From positions 1-64,000 of IMG/VR virus record IMGVR_UViG_3300033463_000011: a stretch of 64,000 bases of DNA; one strand, written 5' to 3'. The position numbers and the translations under genes were made by a program. The notes beneath the pieces were generated by a model that had not been told where the DNA came from, did no database searches, and worked only from the letters and a program-made list of their open reading frames with translations. The stretch comes from a virus (taxonomy: Duplodnaviria; Caudoviricetes). Shown one piece after another: positions 17,790-51,664 of the stretch. The first letter of the stretch is position 1; every line of letters begins with the position of its first letter.

Positions 17790-17834
17790 GATTTACTAAC
17801 CTTATATATTTCTATATTCTAAGGAGGTTTTTCC

Positions 17835-23454: not shown

Positions 23455-23485
23455 CAAACTTTGATATGAGAGGAATTTGACTATT

Positions 23486-26400
23486 ATGGCAAATATAAAT
23501 CAAGTAAAATTGCCAGATAACAGTATATATAACTTCGAAGATGATACTCAAACACGAAGTGACCATAGGCACTACGACACCGATCGGGTGCCTTTGGTTC
23601 ATAAGGTATATGAGAGTACAAGTTATTATGCTTCATCTAATGACTATGCTAATGCCTCATGGTATTTTATGTCTATTAAGCCTGATGAATGGGGTAAGCC
23701 GTGGAGAATAAGATTTAAAGTACATTCATACTGCCCTAATTACACTTCTACATATCAGTCATATACTTGGTCTACTGTATGTGGCAGAGCAGATGGATTT
23801 ATTTATGCTAACTGGAATGAAAGATACAGTTCTGCTCATTCTTACATATTATTATATCCACTGAAATCAGCAGGATTTACCGCTGGTTATGGTCATGCAT
23901 TAGCAATAAGTATTTATAATGCAGATAATCGTACCAGCTCTGCTTATTATAGAACTTTTGAAGTGGATTTATATGACACCGAAAATTGCACAGTAGAGTT
24001 TCTTGATACTCCTGTTAAATGGACTTCTTGGACAGGTGGTACTACTACAAATTACGGAAGTCTTGCCTCATATAATGCTATTGATCGTGGTTTGCTAGAA
24101 ACTGGTGATACGAATGATATTGATAACCGTATCCTTTATTTTGCAGGTAAGACCGGTGCAAAGGGTGTATGGGCAACTTCGTTGTTTATGGAAGATGCCT
24201 ATGGTACATATCAAAATATCTGTACGGCATCTGATGGAACAGTAACATCATCAAATAGAACTACTGGAACAAAGTACGCTAATACAAACGGCTTTAAAGT
24301 AGGGAGTCCTATTTGGTATACAAATACTAATTATAATGCAAACACTAATATTAGCGGATATGGTAATGTCTATAAAACATTTCAGCTTTTTGATACAAGA
24401 TATTCATTCAATACTACTCTTACTGCAGGATCATTAACTGCATACAAACCACTTTATTTGGTAGGTACTATACATTCAGACGGATTATATTATCTTGATA
24501 CAACTTGGTGGACACAGACACCAACAGATCAGAGTAAGATATACGTTCTCGTAGGCGGAGTATATGACAGTACCACATCTAACTGTCGTGCTACTCTTTA
24601 TGAGCAGAATAAATGGTTTAGATATGATGGTACTCAATTAATTGAAATTGCTAATGATGCCCTTACTGTTTCTGGGCATACAGTTGATGCTGATGTTCCT
24701 TCCGGGGCAGTTTTTACTGATACAACATATACATTTGCAGGGGGAACTAACAGTTTTACTGTAACTCCTTCAGGTGGTTCTGCTCAAACTGTAAATGTTA
24801 CTCCTAGTATCGCTAATGCAGAAATGCTTACTACAAACGCTTTTGCACCGACATCTTTAAAAGGTCCTTATATATCTAAAATTGATAATGCCTTTTATGC
24901 CGCAGATAAGCGTTGGACTGTAACTGCTACTAATATGTCGGGTAGTGTAGCTACTTTATTTGATGGTGATTATGAATCCGGTGGAGTTATTCAGAATGGT
25001 AATACTTCTGTAATAACAATGGATTTTTCTAATGAATCCTCTGGTTATTTCCCCGGCTATCCATATGGTTATATTCTTATAAGTTTTTATTATGCCTCTG
25101 TGCCACAAAGCGTGAGTTGCCGAGTTTATTGTAATTACTCAACTCAAGGTGTTGGGTGGCATAACGTGGCGATTACTAAAGTTTCTGACAGTACCGCTAC
25201 CGCTACAACTTATAGAAGTGAGCATCAAAGATATTATCAAATATCTCAAATAGAGATAACTATTGTTGGAGATACAACTAATTCTACTGGCTATACAAAA
25301 GTAAGTCAGATAGAAATGCATTTAGATCGTCCCAATTCCAAAAAGACACCATTTTTGTCAAAATATGGGGAAGAGGAATTATATTATAACCTTACCGCAC
25401 CTAAATTTATTGGTAATTTGCAAGGTAATGCTGATACTGCAAGTGCTTTAACTACTAATGCTGGTTCGGCAACGCAACCTTGCTACTTTTCAGGCGGTGT
25501 TCCCTCAGCTTGTACTTATTCTCTTAATGAAACAGTTCCTAGTGGGGCGGTTTTTACCGATCAGAAGGTAACTCAGACCGAAACTTCAACTGGGGGTGAT
25601 TATGAAGTTCTGTTTTCTGGAACTGCTGATAATGTTACACGAACAGAGGGAACAAATAAATCAAATAATTTACGGTTTAATCCTAGCACTGGACAGTTAA
25701 TTACTGATATTCTTACCGCAGACTCCGTTGATGCTGATTGGATTCAATCATTGAAATTAGTAAACAATGAATATATTACAAAAACAGAAATGTCAAATTC
25801 TGGTGTAGTTATACGTGATGACAACAATAATTCTGTTATTACATTGAATGATTCTGGTGGTATTACCGCTACCACATTAAATGGTGTTACTATTGGTTCA
25901 ACACCAGCGTTTACCGATACGTGGAAAGCGAATAGTTCTTCTTCTGAAGGTTATGTTGCTTCTGGTAGCGGTCAGGTAAACAAGGTTTGGAAAACAACTG
26001 GTGCTGGTGTTCCGGGGTGGACAGATGATTCTAGCTTAGCATATTCGACTGGTTCTAGTGATACCGCAGGGCGTTGGACTGTAACAATTCCGGGTATAAC
26101 TCAGCTTTATGACGGTTTAACTATACGAATATATTTAACTAAATCTTACAACTCTACATTTAATACCCTGAATGTAAATAATTTAGGAGAAGTTTTAGTT
26201 AAATATAGAGCAGGAAGTCAGCTTACTTCACACGTTCCTCAGTATGCTTGTATCGTATTAACCTACAAGACAGGATTAACTGCTTATGCGGTATCAAATG
26301 CTTATTGTGATCCAGTTAATAATGCTAACTATCGTGGAGCTTGGGCGGCTAATACCGCTTATGCCGTAGGTGATTCCGTACAATATAGTAGTACATATTA

Positions 26401-27934
26401 CATTTGTAAAACGGCTCATACTAGCGGTGCTTCTTGGGCAACAACAAACTGGAACACAAGTACAACCCCTTATACATCTTTGGCAGTACCTACAAGTGCT
26501 ACCACAAATATTACTGATGGCTGGTTATTACAGACAGTATATCAAGATGGTAACGATTATTACTATCTTAGAAGAAATTATGCAAATATAAAAGTAGGTG
26601 CTAATAAGATATTCCCTTATACTATTATTGCACAATGCTCTGACGGTAGGTGGGAAAGCATTGTAACAAGTTCCTCTACGGGTACAGGCAAGGCAAGGAA
26701 TGCTCATGGATTCCGATTAGGTCAGATTGCACTAATGTATGCTAATTCAACATACAATGAAAATGCTACGCTTGCTAATACAAATAATGTAAACGACTTT
26801 TATAGCGGACTTGCGGATACTCGATATTCTTTTAATACGGCAAACAATGCTACATATGGCTTAACTGCATATACCCCTATTTACTTAGTAGGATCAATAA
26901 ATTCATCTGATGGTTTATTCTATTTGGATTCTACTTGGTGGACTCAAACATTACCAACCACAGCAGATGGCAAATTATATATCTATATTGGAGATGCCTA
27001 TGATTATTACCGAATGATGTTTACCAATTCTAAATTGATATATAGATATTCTAATGGAAAAATAAGACAGTATGTTCAAGATACTGATACTATAAATGGT
27101 CTTACTGTAGAAACATCAGTCCCCAGTAGTGCAGTTTTTACAGACCAATATGTAAACCAAGCGGCCAATGCTGATGCTAATGTATCATATCAACTTTTGT
27201 TTGAAGATACGGCTAATAGTGGAAATACTACATCAGGTACAAGAAAAACATCATATCTTACATATAACCCTAGTACATCTTATTTTACAATAGGAGATAC
27301 TACACCGGGCGGTGGAACACTGTCAGTTCATAATATATCGGCAACTTCAGTAGCTTCTACGAATTTTACCGGTTCTACACTTAATGGACAAACAATCCCA
27401 GCTTCTCCAGTATTTACAGATCAGGCAGTTCAGCAATTAGAGGGTGGTAATGATGTTGCTTATGAGATGTTGTACGAAGATACTTCAAGTAGTGGAAATA
27501 TTACATCAGGCACAAGAAAATCATCTAACTTGACATACAACCCGGTCACTAATACTTTATCTCTCGCAGGTAAAGTAGATTGTACTAGTATGAGTGTAAC
27601 TACACCTACATACTCAATATCAAAGACAAGCGGTACTTGGAATGTTGGTTCGGTATCTGCAAAGAGAACCGGAAACATAGTTCAGATGACAATTATTGTA
27701 AAAGGTACTGGTACTGGAGTTACTTGTGGAACTGATGGATTTGTAGGTCAATTATCTGGTACAGGACCGGCACCTGCCCAAGATATGACATTAGTATCAT
27801 ATACAGGTAACTATACAATAGTAGGCTATATTGATACCTCAAGAAATATCTGGATAAGACCTATTGGTTCTGGTACATATACGGCAGGAAGTGGTTCTAG
27901 TATTCAGGTAGACGGTTGTTTCATCTGCGAGTAA
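23486..27934 (+). CDS. Long tail fibre / receptor-binding protein
   Basis: About 1480 aa S/T/Y/W-rich; internal duplicated domain; CBM5/12-like W....Y.VGD.V.Y. Confidence 0.75.
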   Translation: MANINQVKLPDNSIYNFEDDTQTRSDHRHYDTDRVPLVHKVYESTSYYASSNDYANASWYFMSIKPDEWGKPWRIRFKVHSYCPNYTSTYQSYTWSTVCGRADGFIYANWNERYSSAHSYILLYPLKSAGFTAGYGHALAISIYNADNRTSSAYYRTFEVDLYDTENCTVEFLDTPVKWTSWTGGTTTNYGSLASYNAIDRGLLETGDTNDIDNRILYFAGKTGAKGVWATSLFMEDAYGTYQNICTASDGTVTSSNRTTGTKYANTNGFKVGSPIWYTNTNYNANTNISGYGNVYKTFQLFDTRYSFNTTLTAGSLTAYKPLYLVGTIHSDGLYYLDTTWWTQTPTDQSKIYVLVGGVYDSTTSNCRATLYEQNKWFRYDGTQLIEIANDALTVSGHTVDADVPSGAVFTDTTYTFAGGTNSFTVTPSGGSAQTVNVTPSIANAEMLTTNAFAPTSLKGPYISKIDNAFYAADKRWTVTATNMSGSVATLFDGDYESGGVIQNGNTSVITMDFSNESSGYFPGYPYGYILISFYYASVPQSVSCRVYCNYSTQGVGWHNVAITKVSDSTATATTYRSEHQRYYQISQIEITIVGDTTNSTGYTKVSQIEMHLDRPNSKKTPFLSKYGEEELYYNLTAPKFIGNLQGNADTASALTTNAGSATQPCYFSGGVPSACTYSLNETVPSGAVFTDQKVTQTETSTGGDYEVLFSGTADNVTRTEGTNKSNNLRFNPSTGQLITDILTADSVDADWIQSLKLVNNEYITKTEMSNSGVVIRDDNNNSVITLNDSGGITATTLNGVTIGSTPAFTDTWKANSSSSEGYVASGSGQVNKVWKTTGAGVPGWTDDSSLAYSTGSSDTAGRWTVTIPGITQLYDGLTIRIYLTKSYNSTFNTLNVNNLGEVLVKYRAGSQLTSHVPQYACIVLTYKTGLTAYAVSNAYCDPVNNANYRGAWAANTAYAVGDSVQYSSTYYICKTAHTSGASWATTNWNTSTTPYTSLAVPTSATTNITDGWLLQTVYQDGNDYYYLRRNYANIKVGANKIFPYTIIAQCSDGRWESIVTSSSTGTGKARNAHGFRLGQIALMYANSTYNENATLANTNNVNDFYSGLADTRYSFNTANNATYGLTAYTPIYLVGSINSSDGLFYLDSTWWTQTLPTTADGKLYIYIGDAYDYYRMMFTNSKLIYRYSNGKIRQYVQDTDTINGLTVETSVPSSAVFTDQYVNQAANADANVSYQLLFEDTANSGNTTSGTRKTSYLTYNPSTSYFTIGDTTPGGGTLSVHNISATSVASTNFTGSTLNGQTIPASPVFTDQAVQQLEGGNDVAYEMLYEDTSSSGNITSGTRKSSNLTYNPVTNTLSLAGKVDCTSMSVTTPTYSISKTSGTWNVGSVSAKRTGNIVQMTIIVKGTGTGVTCGTDGFVGQLSGTGPAPAQDMTLVSYTGNYTIVGYIDTSRNIWIRPIGSGTYTAGSGSSIQVDGCFICE

Positions 27935-27960
27935 CCTTAAATATAAGTAGGAATACTTAT

Positions 27961-28253
27961 AAGAAGGGAGGTAGAAAACCAAGAAACTTCAGTTTCTTGG
28001 ATGAATACACAAAATCCATCAATATAAATTGATGGTCGCTGGCTGTAGCAGGAACACGAACCTCAAATCTTGAGGCAACAGGACGAGAACAGAGCGTAAT
28101 GATTTTGGGGGAACAAATGCCCATTAGACAAGGAAATGTAAGCAGAAGCCTATTGGCAACTGTGTAAGGGCATCTTGGCGATGCCTGTGAGAATAAGGTT
28201 TTCGAACAAACTTCTCACGAAATCCCATTACCTTCAGGTGATGGGTTCGTCAA
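27961..28253 (+). mobile_element. Non-autonomous IS200/IS605-type mini-element with omega-RNA scaffold, no ORF
   Basis: Left hairpin CCAAGAAAC-TTCA-GTTTCTTGG-ATGAA; right hairpin CCCATTACC-TTCA-GGTGATGGG then TTCGTCAA; shares AGAATAAGGTT and CAAACTTCT with the tnpB 3' end; left boundary approximate. Confidence 0.75.
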
Positions 28254-28278
28254 TAATTATAATAGGAGGAATTAAGAA

Positions 28279-28509
28279 ATGGTATTTAAGTCAGAAAAGT
28301 TTTATACAGCTATGAAATGGTTCGTCACAGTATTTATGCCCGCACTCATTGCTCTTTGGCTTGGACTTTCTCGTGTTTGGAATTTTCCTCTTGCAGAAGA
28401 AATCGGTGCTACAATGGCATTAGTTGAAACATTCTTAGGTGCATTACTCGGTATTGGATCTATCAGATACCAGCTGCTTAATAGCGATAAGAATGAAGCG
28501 GAAGGCTAA
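28279..28509 (+). CDS. Holin
   Basis: 76 aa, two TM helices, before endolysin. Confidence 0.85.
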   Translation: MVFKSEKFYTAMKWFVTVFMPALIALWLGLSRVWNFPLAEEIGATMALVETFLGALLGIGSIRYQLLNSDKNEAEG

Positions 28510-28521
28510 GAGGTTATTGTT

Positions 28522-29556
28522 ATGGAACTTATAAGAAGTAAAGTAATTGATACTGCTCTCAGCCAGGTTGGATATCAAGGTTCAACCTATTCATCGAAAT
28601 ATTCGAAGGACTTGGATGCAGTTAAATTTTATAATTATCCCAAGGATGGGGCTTGCACTTGGTGCTCAATATTTGTAGACTGGTGCATATATCAGAATAC
28701 AGATCCACAAACTGCTAATAATGCAAGATCTGCATTATATGAACCCAATTCCGACAACTGTGGTGCTGGCTGTGTGCAATCCGTCCAGTACTACAAATCG
28801 CATAATGCATGGTACTCAAAGCCCTCTGATGCTCATATCGGAGACAAGGTATTCTTTAAGAATTCCTCCGGTATCTATCACGCAGGTATTGTAGTTGATT
28901 GGGATGCTAGTGGTATTTATACAGTAGAGGGTTCAACTGGTGGAGCTAAAGTTTTAAAAAGATTCTATTCTTACAATGATAGTAGATTAGCAGGTTTCGG
29001 CAGACCTAAATATACTGCAAATGAACCTGATGTAAATCCTACACCGACACCAGATCCTGAACCAACACCGACACCTACACCTGAACCTACATACCCTCAT
29101 TACAAAGTGCAAACCAAAGGCAGCACACTTTCATTAAGAAATCAGCCTAATATCTCTACTTCTAAAGTTTTAGCAGATATGCCTAATGGTACAATCATTG
29201 AGGTTTGGGAGATAGTTAAAGGTGAAGAAGTCAATGGTACTACTGATTGGGCACACGCAGGATACAAGGACTATAATGGATTCTGTACTTGCAGCTGGCT
29301 TGTAAAAGTAGATGATGGTAATACTGCATCTGAGCCTGTAGCATCAAAGCCGACAACTGAAACTAAGCCTACTACTTCTACATACAAAGTAATTGCAAAG
29401 AGTGGACTTAATGTTCGTACCGGTCCGGGAACAGGCTACTACGTCACAAGAGTATTAGGTAACGGTGCAAAAGTTACTGTCTACGAAACTAAGAATGGTT
29501 GGGGCAGAATCGGTAATAAGCAATGGTGCGCTATGTCTTACCTTGCTAAGATTTAA
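28522..29556 (+). CDS. Endolysin (CHAP-like catalytic domain, PT linker, two SH3b)
   Basis: WCSIFVDWC...HAGIV...VEG; LNVRTGPG. Confidence 0.9.
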   Translation: MELIRSKVIDTALSQVGYQGSTYSSKYSKDLDAVKFYNYPKDGACTWCSIFVDWCIYQNTDPQTANNARSALYEPNSDNCGAGCVQSVQYYKSHNAWYSKPSDAHIGDKVFFKNSSGIYHAGIVVDWDASGIYTVEGSTGGAKVLKRFYSYNDSRLAGFGRPKYTANEPDVNPTPTPDPEPTPTPTPEPTYPHYKVQTKGSTLSLRNQPNISTSKVLADMPNGTIIEVWEIVKGEEVNGTTDWAHAGYKDYNGFCTCSWLVKVDDGNTASEPVASKPTTETKPTTSTYKVIAKSGLNVRTGPGTGYYVTRVLGNGAKVTVYETKNGWGRIGNKQWCAMSYLAKI

Positions 29557-50130: not shown

Positions 50131-51435
50131 ATGATATTGAAAACCTGGAAACAAAATATAAAACATATTTCTTCTGCGGAGTATGAAATACTACGTAAGA
50201 TGTGTAGATTGTCTAAAAATGTATATAATACTTCTTTATATAATATTAGACAACATTATTTTGCTGAGAAGTCATATCTTAGGTTTGAAGCTAACTACCC
50301 TTTAATGAAATGTGATGATAATTATAGATTATTAGGTGCTAACGTAGCTCAACAAACTATGCGGTCTGCGGACCAATCATTTAAGGCGTTCTTCGGGTTA
50401 TTGAAGTTAGCCAAATCTGGCAGATATGAATCCTGGAGGATTAAATTACCTAAATACTTGGATAAAGATGCATATTATCCAATAAAATTTGCACAGGCCG
50501 CTATAACTGATGGCAAATTACTTGTTCCAATGTCTCCGGAAATGAAGAGAGTTACAGATACTAGAATAAGAATACAAATTCCTAAGTATTTAGCAGATAA
50601 GAAAATTCATCAAGTTCACATAATCCCTAAGCATAATGCTAAGTTCTTTGAAATAAGATATATGTTTGAAGATATTGAGGAGGGTATCAATTATGATTTA
50701 GATAGAACTAAAGCACTAGCTATTGATTTTGGTATCAATAATTTCTGCACTTGCGTAACTAATGATGGTAACTCATTTATAGTAGACGGTAAAAAATTAA
50801 AATCTATCAATCAATGGTACAATAAAGAATTGGCCAGACTGTCATCTATAAAAGATAAACAGAAGATTAAGCATTGCACAAATTTACAGTATTCCAAAAT
50901 TAATAAGCGGAATAATCAAATTAATGATTACATTTACAAATCGGCTAAATTTATAATTAATTATTGTGTAGAGCATAAAATCGGTAATCTAGTAGTTGGC
51001 TACAATGATGGCTTCCAAGACAAAGTAAATCTCGGTAAGGTTAATAATCAGAAATTTGTTATGATTCCATATGGTCGACTGAAGGACAGGTTAGAATATC
51101 TTTGTAAATTACATAATATTAATTATATCTTACAAGAAGAGAGTTATACTTCTAAAGCGAGCTTCTTCGATTACGACGATGTCCCTGTATGGAATCCTCA
51201 AAATCCTAAACAAGGTAATTTTTCGGGTAAAAGAATTTCACGAGGCCAATATCTAACTCAAGATAAAACTGTAATTAATGCCGATGTAAATGGAGCGCTG
51301 AATATTTTAAGAAAAAGTAATGTTGTAAGCTGCAAAGCTTTATACAGTAGTGGCGACGTGATTACGCCTTTAAGAATAAGGTTGGTCAGAAGCAATTCTG
51401 GTGGAAACTTAAACAGCAAACTTCTTAATAATTAG
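50131..51435 (+). CDS. tnpB: TnpB RNA-guided endonuclease, no TnpA
   Basis: YN...Y..RQ, AIDFG, QEESYTSK, NADVNGALNI. Confidence 0.92.
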   Translation: MILKTWKQNIKHISSAEYEILRKMCRLSKNVYNTSLYNIRQHYFAEKSYLRFEANYPLMKCDDNYRLLGANVAQQTMRSADQSFKAFFGLLKLAKSGRYESWRIKLPKYLDKDAYYPIKFAQAAITDGKLLVPMSPEMKRVTDTRIRIQIPKYLADKKIHQVHIIPKHNAKFFEIRYMFEDIEEGINYDLDRTKALAIDFGINNFCTCVTNDGNSFIVDGKKLKSINQWYNKELARLSSIKDKQKIKHCTNLQYSKINKRNNQINDYIYKSAKFIINYCVEHKIGNLVVGYNDGFQDKVNLGKVNNQKFVMIPYGRLKDRLEYLCKLHNINYILQEESYTSKASFFDYDDVPVWNPQNPKQGNFSGKRISRGQYLTQDKTVINADVNGALNILRKSNVVSCKALYSSGDVITPLRIRLVRSNSGGNLNSKLLNN

Positions 51436-51664
51436 TTTTATACAAAATCGTTAATAGTAATTAACAATTTTTATAATTCTATTATCATAACAATTATTCA
51501 ACCTCTTGCACTTTTAACTACAGAAGAAATCATTGAACTATATAATGAGGGCATGCAAGGTTCTTAAACATATCGCATCGGGCGAGATCTTAGTTCTCTG
51601 AAATTTTCTAAAAATATTAGATAGATTAGTAAGGAATTGATATCAACTAAATCTCAAGGTTAAA

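Follow-up and report, generated by a model that had tools for sequence, protein, structure and literature searches.

Genomic setting of the holin leader

The window analysed here is a stretch of 64,000 nucleotides, the first 64 kb of a 200,233-bp phage record from IMG/VR that is rated complete by CheckV. In the spacer between a tail-fibre-like gene and a Dp-1-type holin gene, which is itself followed by a gene for an SH3_3 endolysin, the window carries a 293-nt segment whose features are collected in Table 1. Open reading frames within 27961-28253 amount to short, spurious frames, none of them of substance, and the relics of TnpB that blastx recovers from the segment are limited to 16 and 5 C-terminal residues in two different frames.

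The same phage encodes two intact TnpB proteins, both outside this segment. Besides TnpB1 (Table 1), a second protein of the same type, TnpB2, is encoded at genome positions 171834-173093 and is 61% identical to TnpB1. A Y1 TnpA gene is found at genome positions 109013-109375. It forms part of an IS605-type unit (genome 108971-110652; L023:1459-3140) in which the Y1 tnpA (141 aa) is accompanied by a 377-aa ORF in the position of tnpB; this ORF is unrelated and shows no match to TnpB1. At its right end the unit has a hairpin followed by ...GTAGTTCAC, the same type of end as is seen in many elements with a 434-aa TnpB, and an AACCTT motif lies after the unit at genome position 110670.

Table 1. 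Features of the tail-fibre/holin spacer and its neighbours, with the resident tnpB gene of the window (window coordinates)
Feature	Position	Strand	Remarks
Tail-fibre-like gene	23477-27934		1,485 aa; upstream of the mini-element
AACCTTWWWT promoter-class motif	27933-27942	+	Immediately follows the tail-fibre stop codon; conserved in L064 and L065
TTAT target / transposon-adjacent motif (TAM)	27957-27960	+	Directly 5′ of the left end; junction relative to L064 and L065
Whole non-autonomous element	27961-28253	+	293 nt; no gene, no target duplication; precisely absent in two relatives
Left end	27961-28006	+	18-nt leader, 9-bp hairpin with 4-nt loop (27979-28000), then ATGAAT
Internal segment	28007-28133	+	Hairpins 28016-28035 and 28061-28075; no resemblance to tnpB
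Omega-RNA scaffold / right end	28134-28253	+	P1 28142-28163, P2 28169-28185, P3 28187-28218, P4 28224-28245
Pseudoknot 5′ strand (P2 loop)	28175-28180	+	Pairs with 28248-28253; helix intact in the window copy
Pseudoknot 3′ strand	28248-28253	+	Last six bases of the element, ending TCAA
Predicted 16-nt guide	28254-28269	+	3′ flank by the TnpB position rule; contains the holin Shine-Dalgarno (28264-28269)
Holin gene (Dp-1 type)	28279-28509	+	First gene 3′ of the element; Pfam PF16938, E 1e-15
Resident tnpB1	50131-51435	+	434 aa; Pfam OrfB_IS605 and TNB domain; trans partner proposed in the initial annotation; sister subclade

Empty sites define the boundaries of a mini-element

A protein-pattern search of viral contigs returned no relatives of the endolysin, but a search of a large protein index did find some, and the contigs of two of these (L064 and L065, with endolysins at 97% and 75% identity) provided the comparison on which the boundaries rest. 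Both contigs join window position 27960 straight to 28254, so that 293 nt are missing after TTAT. In L064 the alignment breaks at 1359|1360, with 94.6% identity in the left flank and 88% in the right flank. The spacer between tail fibre and holin is only 51 nt long in these two relatives, and the window segment is thus an insertion placed right after TTAT within that spacer, without target duplication and in the sense orientation. The initial annotation had described the segment as a TnpB-less mini-element beginning at 27961 and ending in TCAA at 28253, and had named an absence of empty-site alleles among the observations that would refute its reading; both ends agree to the nucleotide with the empty-site junctions, and L064 and L065 carry empty sites.

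The terminal hairpins proposed at the same time are also present, the one on the right being P4 of the scaffold (Table 1). They lie 18 nt from the left end and 8 nt from the right end, a layout shared by full-length relatives, whose left ends consist of TTAT or TTTAT, 17-20 nt of leader, a 9-bp hairpin with a 4-nt loop, and ATGAA. Over window positions 27973-28006 the identity to the left end of the L019/L020 tnpB element is 97%, and the left-end stem shows paired changes relative to further mini copies described below (L153/L156). Either TTAT or TTTAT is found 5′ of the left end in the full-length relatives and in the other mini copies as well, and the sister subclade to which the resident TnpBs belong has TTTAT at independent left junctions too. 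The recurrence of the motif at independent left junctions indicates that TTAT is both the target and the TAM of the family. A long-range helix between the ATGAA of the left end and the bases preceding the terminal AA, which RNAalifold suggested from three copies, was discarded as it is not kept in the full-length relatives.

An omega-RNA scaffold closed by a covarying pseudoknot

Pattern scans of viral contigs were used to gather a family of tnpB genes encoding 418-434 aa. The right ends of these genes (L003, L016, L019, L026 and others) are collinear with window 28134-28253. Two copies located on one contig (L003 and L006) diverge straight after the terminal ...GTCAA hexamer, and this divergence defines the right end of the family. 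From 21 phage-contig sequences we built an alignment (A1) and a covariance model (R1), leaving out both the window mini-element and the 3′ end of the resident tnpB. R1 matches 28134-28253 across all of its 137 positions (109.8 bits, E 1.8e-25), and the match stops at 28253, which is the insertion boundary.

The A1 fold, computed with RNAalifold, has four helices, and 16 of their 30 pairs show compensatory changes. Across the 21 sequences, 97.9% of pair cells are paired and 19 pairs are changed on both sides, a level reached in 0 of 500 shuffles; sliding the pairing partners abolishes the signal. The pseudoknot between the P2 loop and the last six bases of the element is paired at 100% in 21 of 21 family members, with three of its six pairs changing on both sides. 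All four stems and this guide-adjacent pseudoknot are intact in the window mini-element. For the omega RNA of ISDra2 and for Cas12 guide RNAs, conservation of a pseudoknot formed with the bases directly 5′ of the guide has been reported (PMC10097598).

The covariance-model comparison suggested in the initial annotation thus gave a full-length match to the custom omega-RNA model R1. There is none to Rfam families: the 64 kb contain no Rfam match at gathering thresholds, and with E values up to 10 the region 27500-28700 returns only noise (E > 0.6). A BLAST search of the region against 50,697 phage records likewise returned no match. The parallel drawn earlier between the mini-element and the 3′ end of the resident tnpB holds in part. 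At the level of raw BLAST it comes down to an 11-mer (E 4), which is chance level, but R1 also matches the 3′ end of tnpB1 (51313-51454; 53 bits, E 2e-11), and the homology is real because both regions are matched by a model built without either. Judged from their sequences, the RNAs of the mini-element and of resident tnpB1 are cousins and not a matched pair.

Taken with the precise empty sites, the R1 match upholds the earlier description of a TnpB-less IS200/IS605 mini-element with an omega RNA. We regard as secure its classification as a non-autonomous, PATE-like element of the IS200/IS605 type with IS608-like ends, lacking both tnpA and tnpB.

Further copies and the wider family

Scanning viral contigs and metagenome contigs once each with a 26-mer from the internal segment brought up further mini copies. 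Two of these, L153/L155 and L156, are full copies of ~90% identity that have different flanks and stand in front of other genes; both insertions directly follow a ...TTAT that closes an AACCTT-type motif. A third copy, L021/L154, is without the left end and is 88% identical from window position 28064 onwards. All four distinct mini copies (the window copy and the three others) score 105-110 bits with R1, showing that none of them has decayed. Standard pairs make up 98.6% of the pair cells in these four copies, which differ by two double changes and several wobble-compatible single changes; covariation within this small set is modest, the observed value being reached in 17-25 of 500 shuffles. 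The occurrence of near-identical TnpB-less copies at other TTAT sites points to a mobile PATE-like family and not to a one-off relic.

The internal segment, which was said to be additional structured RNA, is conserved in L153 and L156 and, from 28064 on, also in L021/L154. From about this position it is almost invariant between copies and more conserved than the scaffold. The hairpins named for it are present and conserved in other copies, and the second of them (28061-28075) shows one compensatory pair. In terms of fold energy relative to shuffles, the whole 312 nt reach a z score of -3.47, while the piece 28001-28133 taken alone is not significant (z -1.48). No similarity to tnpB coding sequence was found for 28007-28133. 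A near-copy of the AACCTT motif lies inside the segment at 28058-28067. We can only speculate on the function of the segment, which might serve as an internal promoter or extend the RNA at its 5′ end.

The wider family includes further TnpB-less omega-RNA elements, seen in the phage contigs L014, L015, L029-L033, L038 and L040, and some of them are placed directly behind a strong -10/-35 promoter. Orphan omega-RNA guides are therefore common in phage contigs. Several of these elements (L030, L032 and L040, and also L033 and L015) have a conserved 5′ module with a small hairpin, and the ...AGACTTCT motif known from the P3 3′ strand recurs in the loop and 3′ arm of this hairpin. The module directly follows an extended -10 promoter in three contigs; it may offer an alternative partner for pairing or mark where transcription starts. 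In L038 (10678-10800 and the next 40 nt), the right-end hairpin and terminal motif occur as a tandem duplicate after a TnpB-less omega RNA.

Bacteria carry the RNA subfamily in multiple copies, mainly Negativicutes of the gut and rumen (such as Megasphaera, Selenomonas and Mitsuokella) but also some Clostridia. Among phages, the complete 467-kb genome G002 (L005, L017) has two intact tnpB genes together with a broken tnpB (internal stop) that retains a perfect omega RNA (136 bits). Its combination of intact nucleases and an orphan guide parallels that of the window genome.

Promoter motifs, predicted guide and natural targets

The AACCTTWWWT motif upstream of the insertion recurs throughout the 200-kb genome, with 29 copies on the + strand against 3 on the - strand, and as a rule stands 30-50 nt ahead of a ribosome-binding site. 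Examples in the window are at 17798, 27933, 34626, 38555, 42763 and 59177. We infer that the motif acts as a promoter. A second motif, AATCGTTA, has 46 copies on the + strand and 6 on the - strand across the whole genome, again usually 30-50 nt before a ribosome-binding site. This phage-specific, promoter-like motif occurs in the window at 29556, 30410, 31299, 36050 and 51446, among other positions, and one copy of it lies within the AT-rich sequence that follows tnpB1. On the + strand, neither the element nor the sequence before it yielded a sigma-70-like promoter. The mini-element does lie where it was first placed, between a putative late promoter, the promoter-class motif at 27933, and the holin ribosome-binding site. 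Given its sense orientation behind that motif, it should be transcribed within the holin leader.

The commonest form of AACCTTWWWT ends in TTAT, the target of the transposon. AACCTT promoters may be insertion hot spots, with the L153 and L156 copies placed exactly at the end of the motif.

TnpB takes as its guide the flank that comes right after the scaffold (PMC10097598). By this family rule, the guide predicted for the mini-element would be the 16 nt that follow 28253 and would cover the holin Shine-Dalgarno, as had been anticipated from the window sequence. In L064 the TTAT is followed by an exact match to these 16 nt, and in L065 by a match with one mismatch. The phage's own genome has no TTAT-flanked copy of the guide target. 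A near-match to the guide at genome position 119845 was set aside as a target, being a common leader motif with ATCAA and not TTAT as its 5′ flank.

Candidate nucleases

TnpB1 and TnpB2 keep their catalytic motifs, namely the RuvC-I Asp, the relocated Glu in a QEESYTS motif, and the RuvC-III Asp. Branches of TnpB with active sites rearranged in this way have been reported to be virus-enriched (PMC10691335). With the TnpBs that natively carry the RNA type of the mini-element (L003/L019), the two resident proteins are only 45-46% identical. The omega-RNA core of tnpB1 and that of the mini-element have in common P2, P3 and the conserved unpaired motifs; the P1 region of the resident TnpBs' own RNAs differs from that of the mini-element.

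Both resident tnpB genes are without the G+C-rich terminal hairpin usual in their subclade and instead have AT-rich right ends (window 51313-51501 and genome 173033-173204); the only G+C-rich terminal hairpin in the genome is that of the mini-element. In tnpB2, the P2 loop has a complementary hexamer that ends at genome position 173204, the very junction at which the reading frame of an interrupted doc (Fic-type) gene is restored, and this coincidence indicates that TnpB2 has a complete omega RNA of its own. The idea that the resident tnpBs lack complete omega RNAs and hence might need a guide in trans was dropped on this account. In tnpB1 several AT-rich hexamers fit as pseudoknot partner, and its right end is ambiguous. 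An omega RNA of their own is thus to be credited to at least one resident TnpB (TnpB2) and probably to both. The same AT-rich variant of the right end, with matching loop and terminal hexamers, is seen in other phages (L002, L005 and L008).

These results bear on the proposal that the mini-element supplies a trans guide to the TnpB encoded 22 kb away, directed against element-free relatives at the lysis cassette. The targets it calls for exist, as element-free relatives carry TTAT and the target; the partnership itself is conjectural. Against it stand the 45-46% identity to the cognate type, the cis omega RNA of TnpB2, and the orphan copies of other phage fragments, in the available part of which no TnpB1-like gene was found. 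Candidates for the partner are a resident TnpB that works outside its own subclade and a cognate L019-type TnpB encoded by the host or by another element. The TnpA in the genome belongs to an element with a different type of right end.

Comparison with known systems

PATEs with omega RNAs that need TnpB in trans have been described (PMC10055086). The PATE-like elements of Geobacillus stearothermophilus (Meers et al. 2023, PMC10055086) likewise have hairpin ends and no gene, and retain an omega RNA that would depend on the TnpB of another element; TnpA mobilises them in trans, as would presumably have to happen with the mini-element. Unlike them, the mini-element is found in phage genomes, in a lysis-gene leader behind a phage promoter motif, it represents another omega-RNA/TnpB lineage, with a rearranged RuvC-II and without a zinc finger, and natural empty alleles of it are available. 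The layout of its ends recalls IS608 of Helicobacter pylori, the paradigm of IS200/IS605 (PMC10055086), which likewise inserts 3′ of a tetranucleotide without duplication and has subterminal hairpins at ~19 nt (left) and ~8-10 nt (right) from its ends, as well as a TCAA right end. The mini-element departs from IS608 in its target, which is TTAT and not TTAC, in the unlike sequences of its left and right hairpins, and in the absence of tnpA and tnpB.

As to the RNA, the omega RNA of ISDra2 TnpB known from cryo-EM (PMC10097598) likewise has a scaffold of ~116-120 nt with several stems and a pseudoknot before the guide, takes a 16-nt guide from the flank, as predicted for the mini-element, and has a scaffold that overlaps the tnpB 3′ end. 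There is no sequence similarity between the two, the pseudoknot partner of the mini-element is the loop of the P2 hairpin, and its TAM is TTAT where that of ISDra2 is TTGAT.

In terms of expected outcome, the mini-element resembles the free-standing homing endonucleases of T-even phages and non-restorative homing (PMC13565253), where, in a mixed infection, an element-free genome is cut and the locus is converted or the competitor excluded. Both ‘transposon non-restorative homing’ and homing into co-infecting phages have been proposed in a review (PMC13565253). In contrast to the T-even enzymes, recognition by the mini-element would be RNA-guided, with guide and nuclease as unlinked genes that are possibly on different replicons. 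With the nuclease-dead, TnpB-derived TldR repressors (PMC10705468) the mini-element shares a guide RNA by a promoter or ribosome-binding region, which could in principle repress. The present system differs from TldR in that the resident TnpBs keep their catalytic residues, the cis site of the mini-element is without a TAM, and the element is mobile and not domesticated.

Possible roles of the mini-element

There are several possible explanations for the presence of an intact omega RNA in the holin leader. On balance we lean, by a narrow judgement, towards a PATE-like element whose complete omega RNA guides a TnpB acting in trans against element-free genomes. The mini-element would be transcribed as part of the holin leader, and a TnpB supplied in trans would bind the 120-nt scaffold, this being either resident TnpB1 or TnpB2 or an L019-like TnpB of the host or of a co-resident element. 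With the next ~16 nt serving as guide, the complex would cut TTAT followed by the uninterrupted spacer, which is to say element-free relatives or excision products. Repair from an element-bearing genome would then restore or spread the element; alternatively, the competitor genome would simply be damaged. Transposition would need a Y1 TnpA in trans. The occurrence of two intact TnpBs and a Y1 TnpA in the same genome counts in favour of this explanation. Counting against it, the resident TnpBs probably have omega RNAs of their own and so no need for that of the mini-element, and part of the modest covariation within the mini copies falls in hairpins that TnpA would also need as DNA. The negative promoter search on the + strand, the low identity of the resident TnpBs to the cognate type, the orphan copies in fragments with no such TnpB in the available part, and the different right-end type of the element to which the resident TnpA belongs weigh on the same side. 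As predicted from sequence and context, a trans-guide function is plausible, and it is now directly testable since filled and empty natural alleles are in hand.

A possible but doubtful alternative is that the mini-element is an inert passenger, either a mini-transposon spread by TnpA or a recent deletion derivative, with an omega RNA that no nuclease uses in the phage life cycle. Conservation of its structure would then reflect the youth of the copies and the need of TnpA for end hairpins in DNA form. The ~90% identity of the copies speaks for such youth, and the modest covariation within the mini family fits as well, as does the fact that close relatives do well without the element and that no TnpB of the cognate subclade was seen in the genome or beside the other copies. 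What an inert passenger does not readily account for is that every stem and the pseudoknot are kept in all four copies at a near-maximal R1 score, with paired or wobble-compatible changes in P1 and in the inner P3 stem, outside the TnpA hairpins. The recurrence of TnpB-less omega-RNA elements in many phage contigs, some with a strong promoter of their own, would also be hard to explain if the RNA were useless.

The version favoured in the initial annotation, a trans guide specifically for the resident TnpB at 50131-51435, is a special case of the trans-guide explanation, and we consider it unlikely. The gene is in the same genome and intact with its catalytic motifs, its own omega-RNA core shares P2, P3 and the unpaired motifs with the mini-element, and its subclade uses the TTTAT left-flank motif too. 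Points against it are the 45% identity of the protein to the cognate type, the different P1 region of its own RNA and the guide that it probably has of its own. Still less probable is a cis leader that tunes holin translation and lysis timing, either directly or through a scaffold-bound TnpB that holds the Shine-Dalgarno as guide. Such a role would draw on the position of the element inside the presumed transcript and on the identity of guide positions 28264-28269 with the holin Shine-Dalgarno, and the L153 guide covers a ribosome-binding site as well. In L156 and L021, however, the ribosome-binding site is outside the guide or absent, and the same element stands before unrelated genes, making any effect a by-product of insertion; as near-identical relatives lack the insertion, any role in lysis timing would be no more than a side effect. 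Resemblance by chance, or a structured RNA without relation to transposons, would agree with the absence of an Rfam match and with a raw similarity to the resident tnpB of only an 11-mer, but it can be dismissed in view of the precise empty sites, the covariance-model match, the 97% identity of the left end, the family covariation and the other mini copies.

Implications for phage biology

Omega-RNA-only IS200/IS605 elements have already been described in bacteria, and the mini-element is another such element in an informative phage setting. For a virus-enriched TnpB lineage with rearranged RuvC-II, our analysis yields a well-supported structure model of the omega RNA that includes a covarying pseudoknot. 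Going further, and as a tentative suggestion that may well prove wrong, guide-only mini-transposons among related large phages would arm any TnpB at hand, of the phage or of its host, against element-free competitors, borrowing strong late AACCTT transcription. If this is true, they would land at TTAT in or just after AACCTT-class promoters, and the target here would be the entrance to the lysis cassette. Guide and nuclease, being unlinked, would amount to a two-part gene drive or an inter-phage weapon, and each guide that matures would, as a by-product, separate a holin message from its ribosome-binding site. In bacterial chromosomes, homing guided by TnpB has been demonstrated with elements that encode the nuclease themselves. 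For homing that is guide-only and unlinked, the filled allele, the two empty alleles with TAM and target, and the candidate nucleases of the same genome provide a natural test set, at a holin-leader locus where cutting or conversion would give a visible phenotype.
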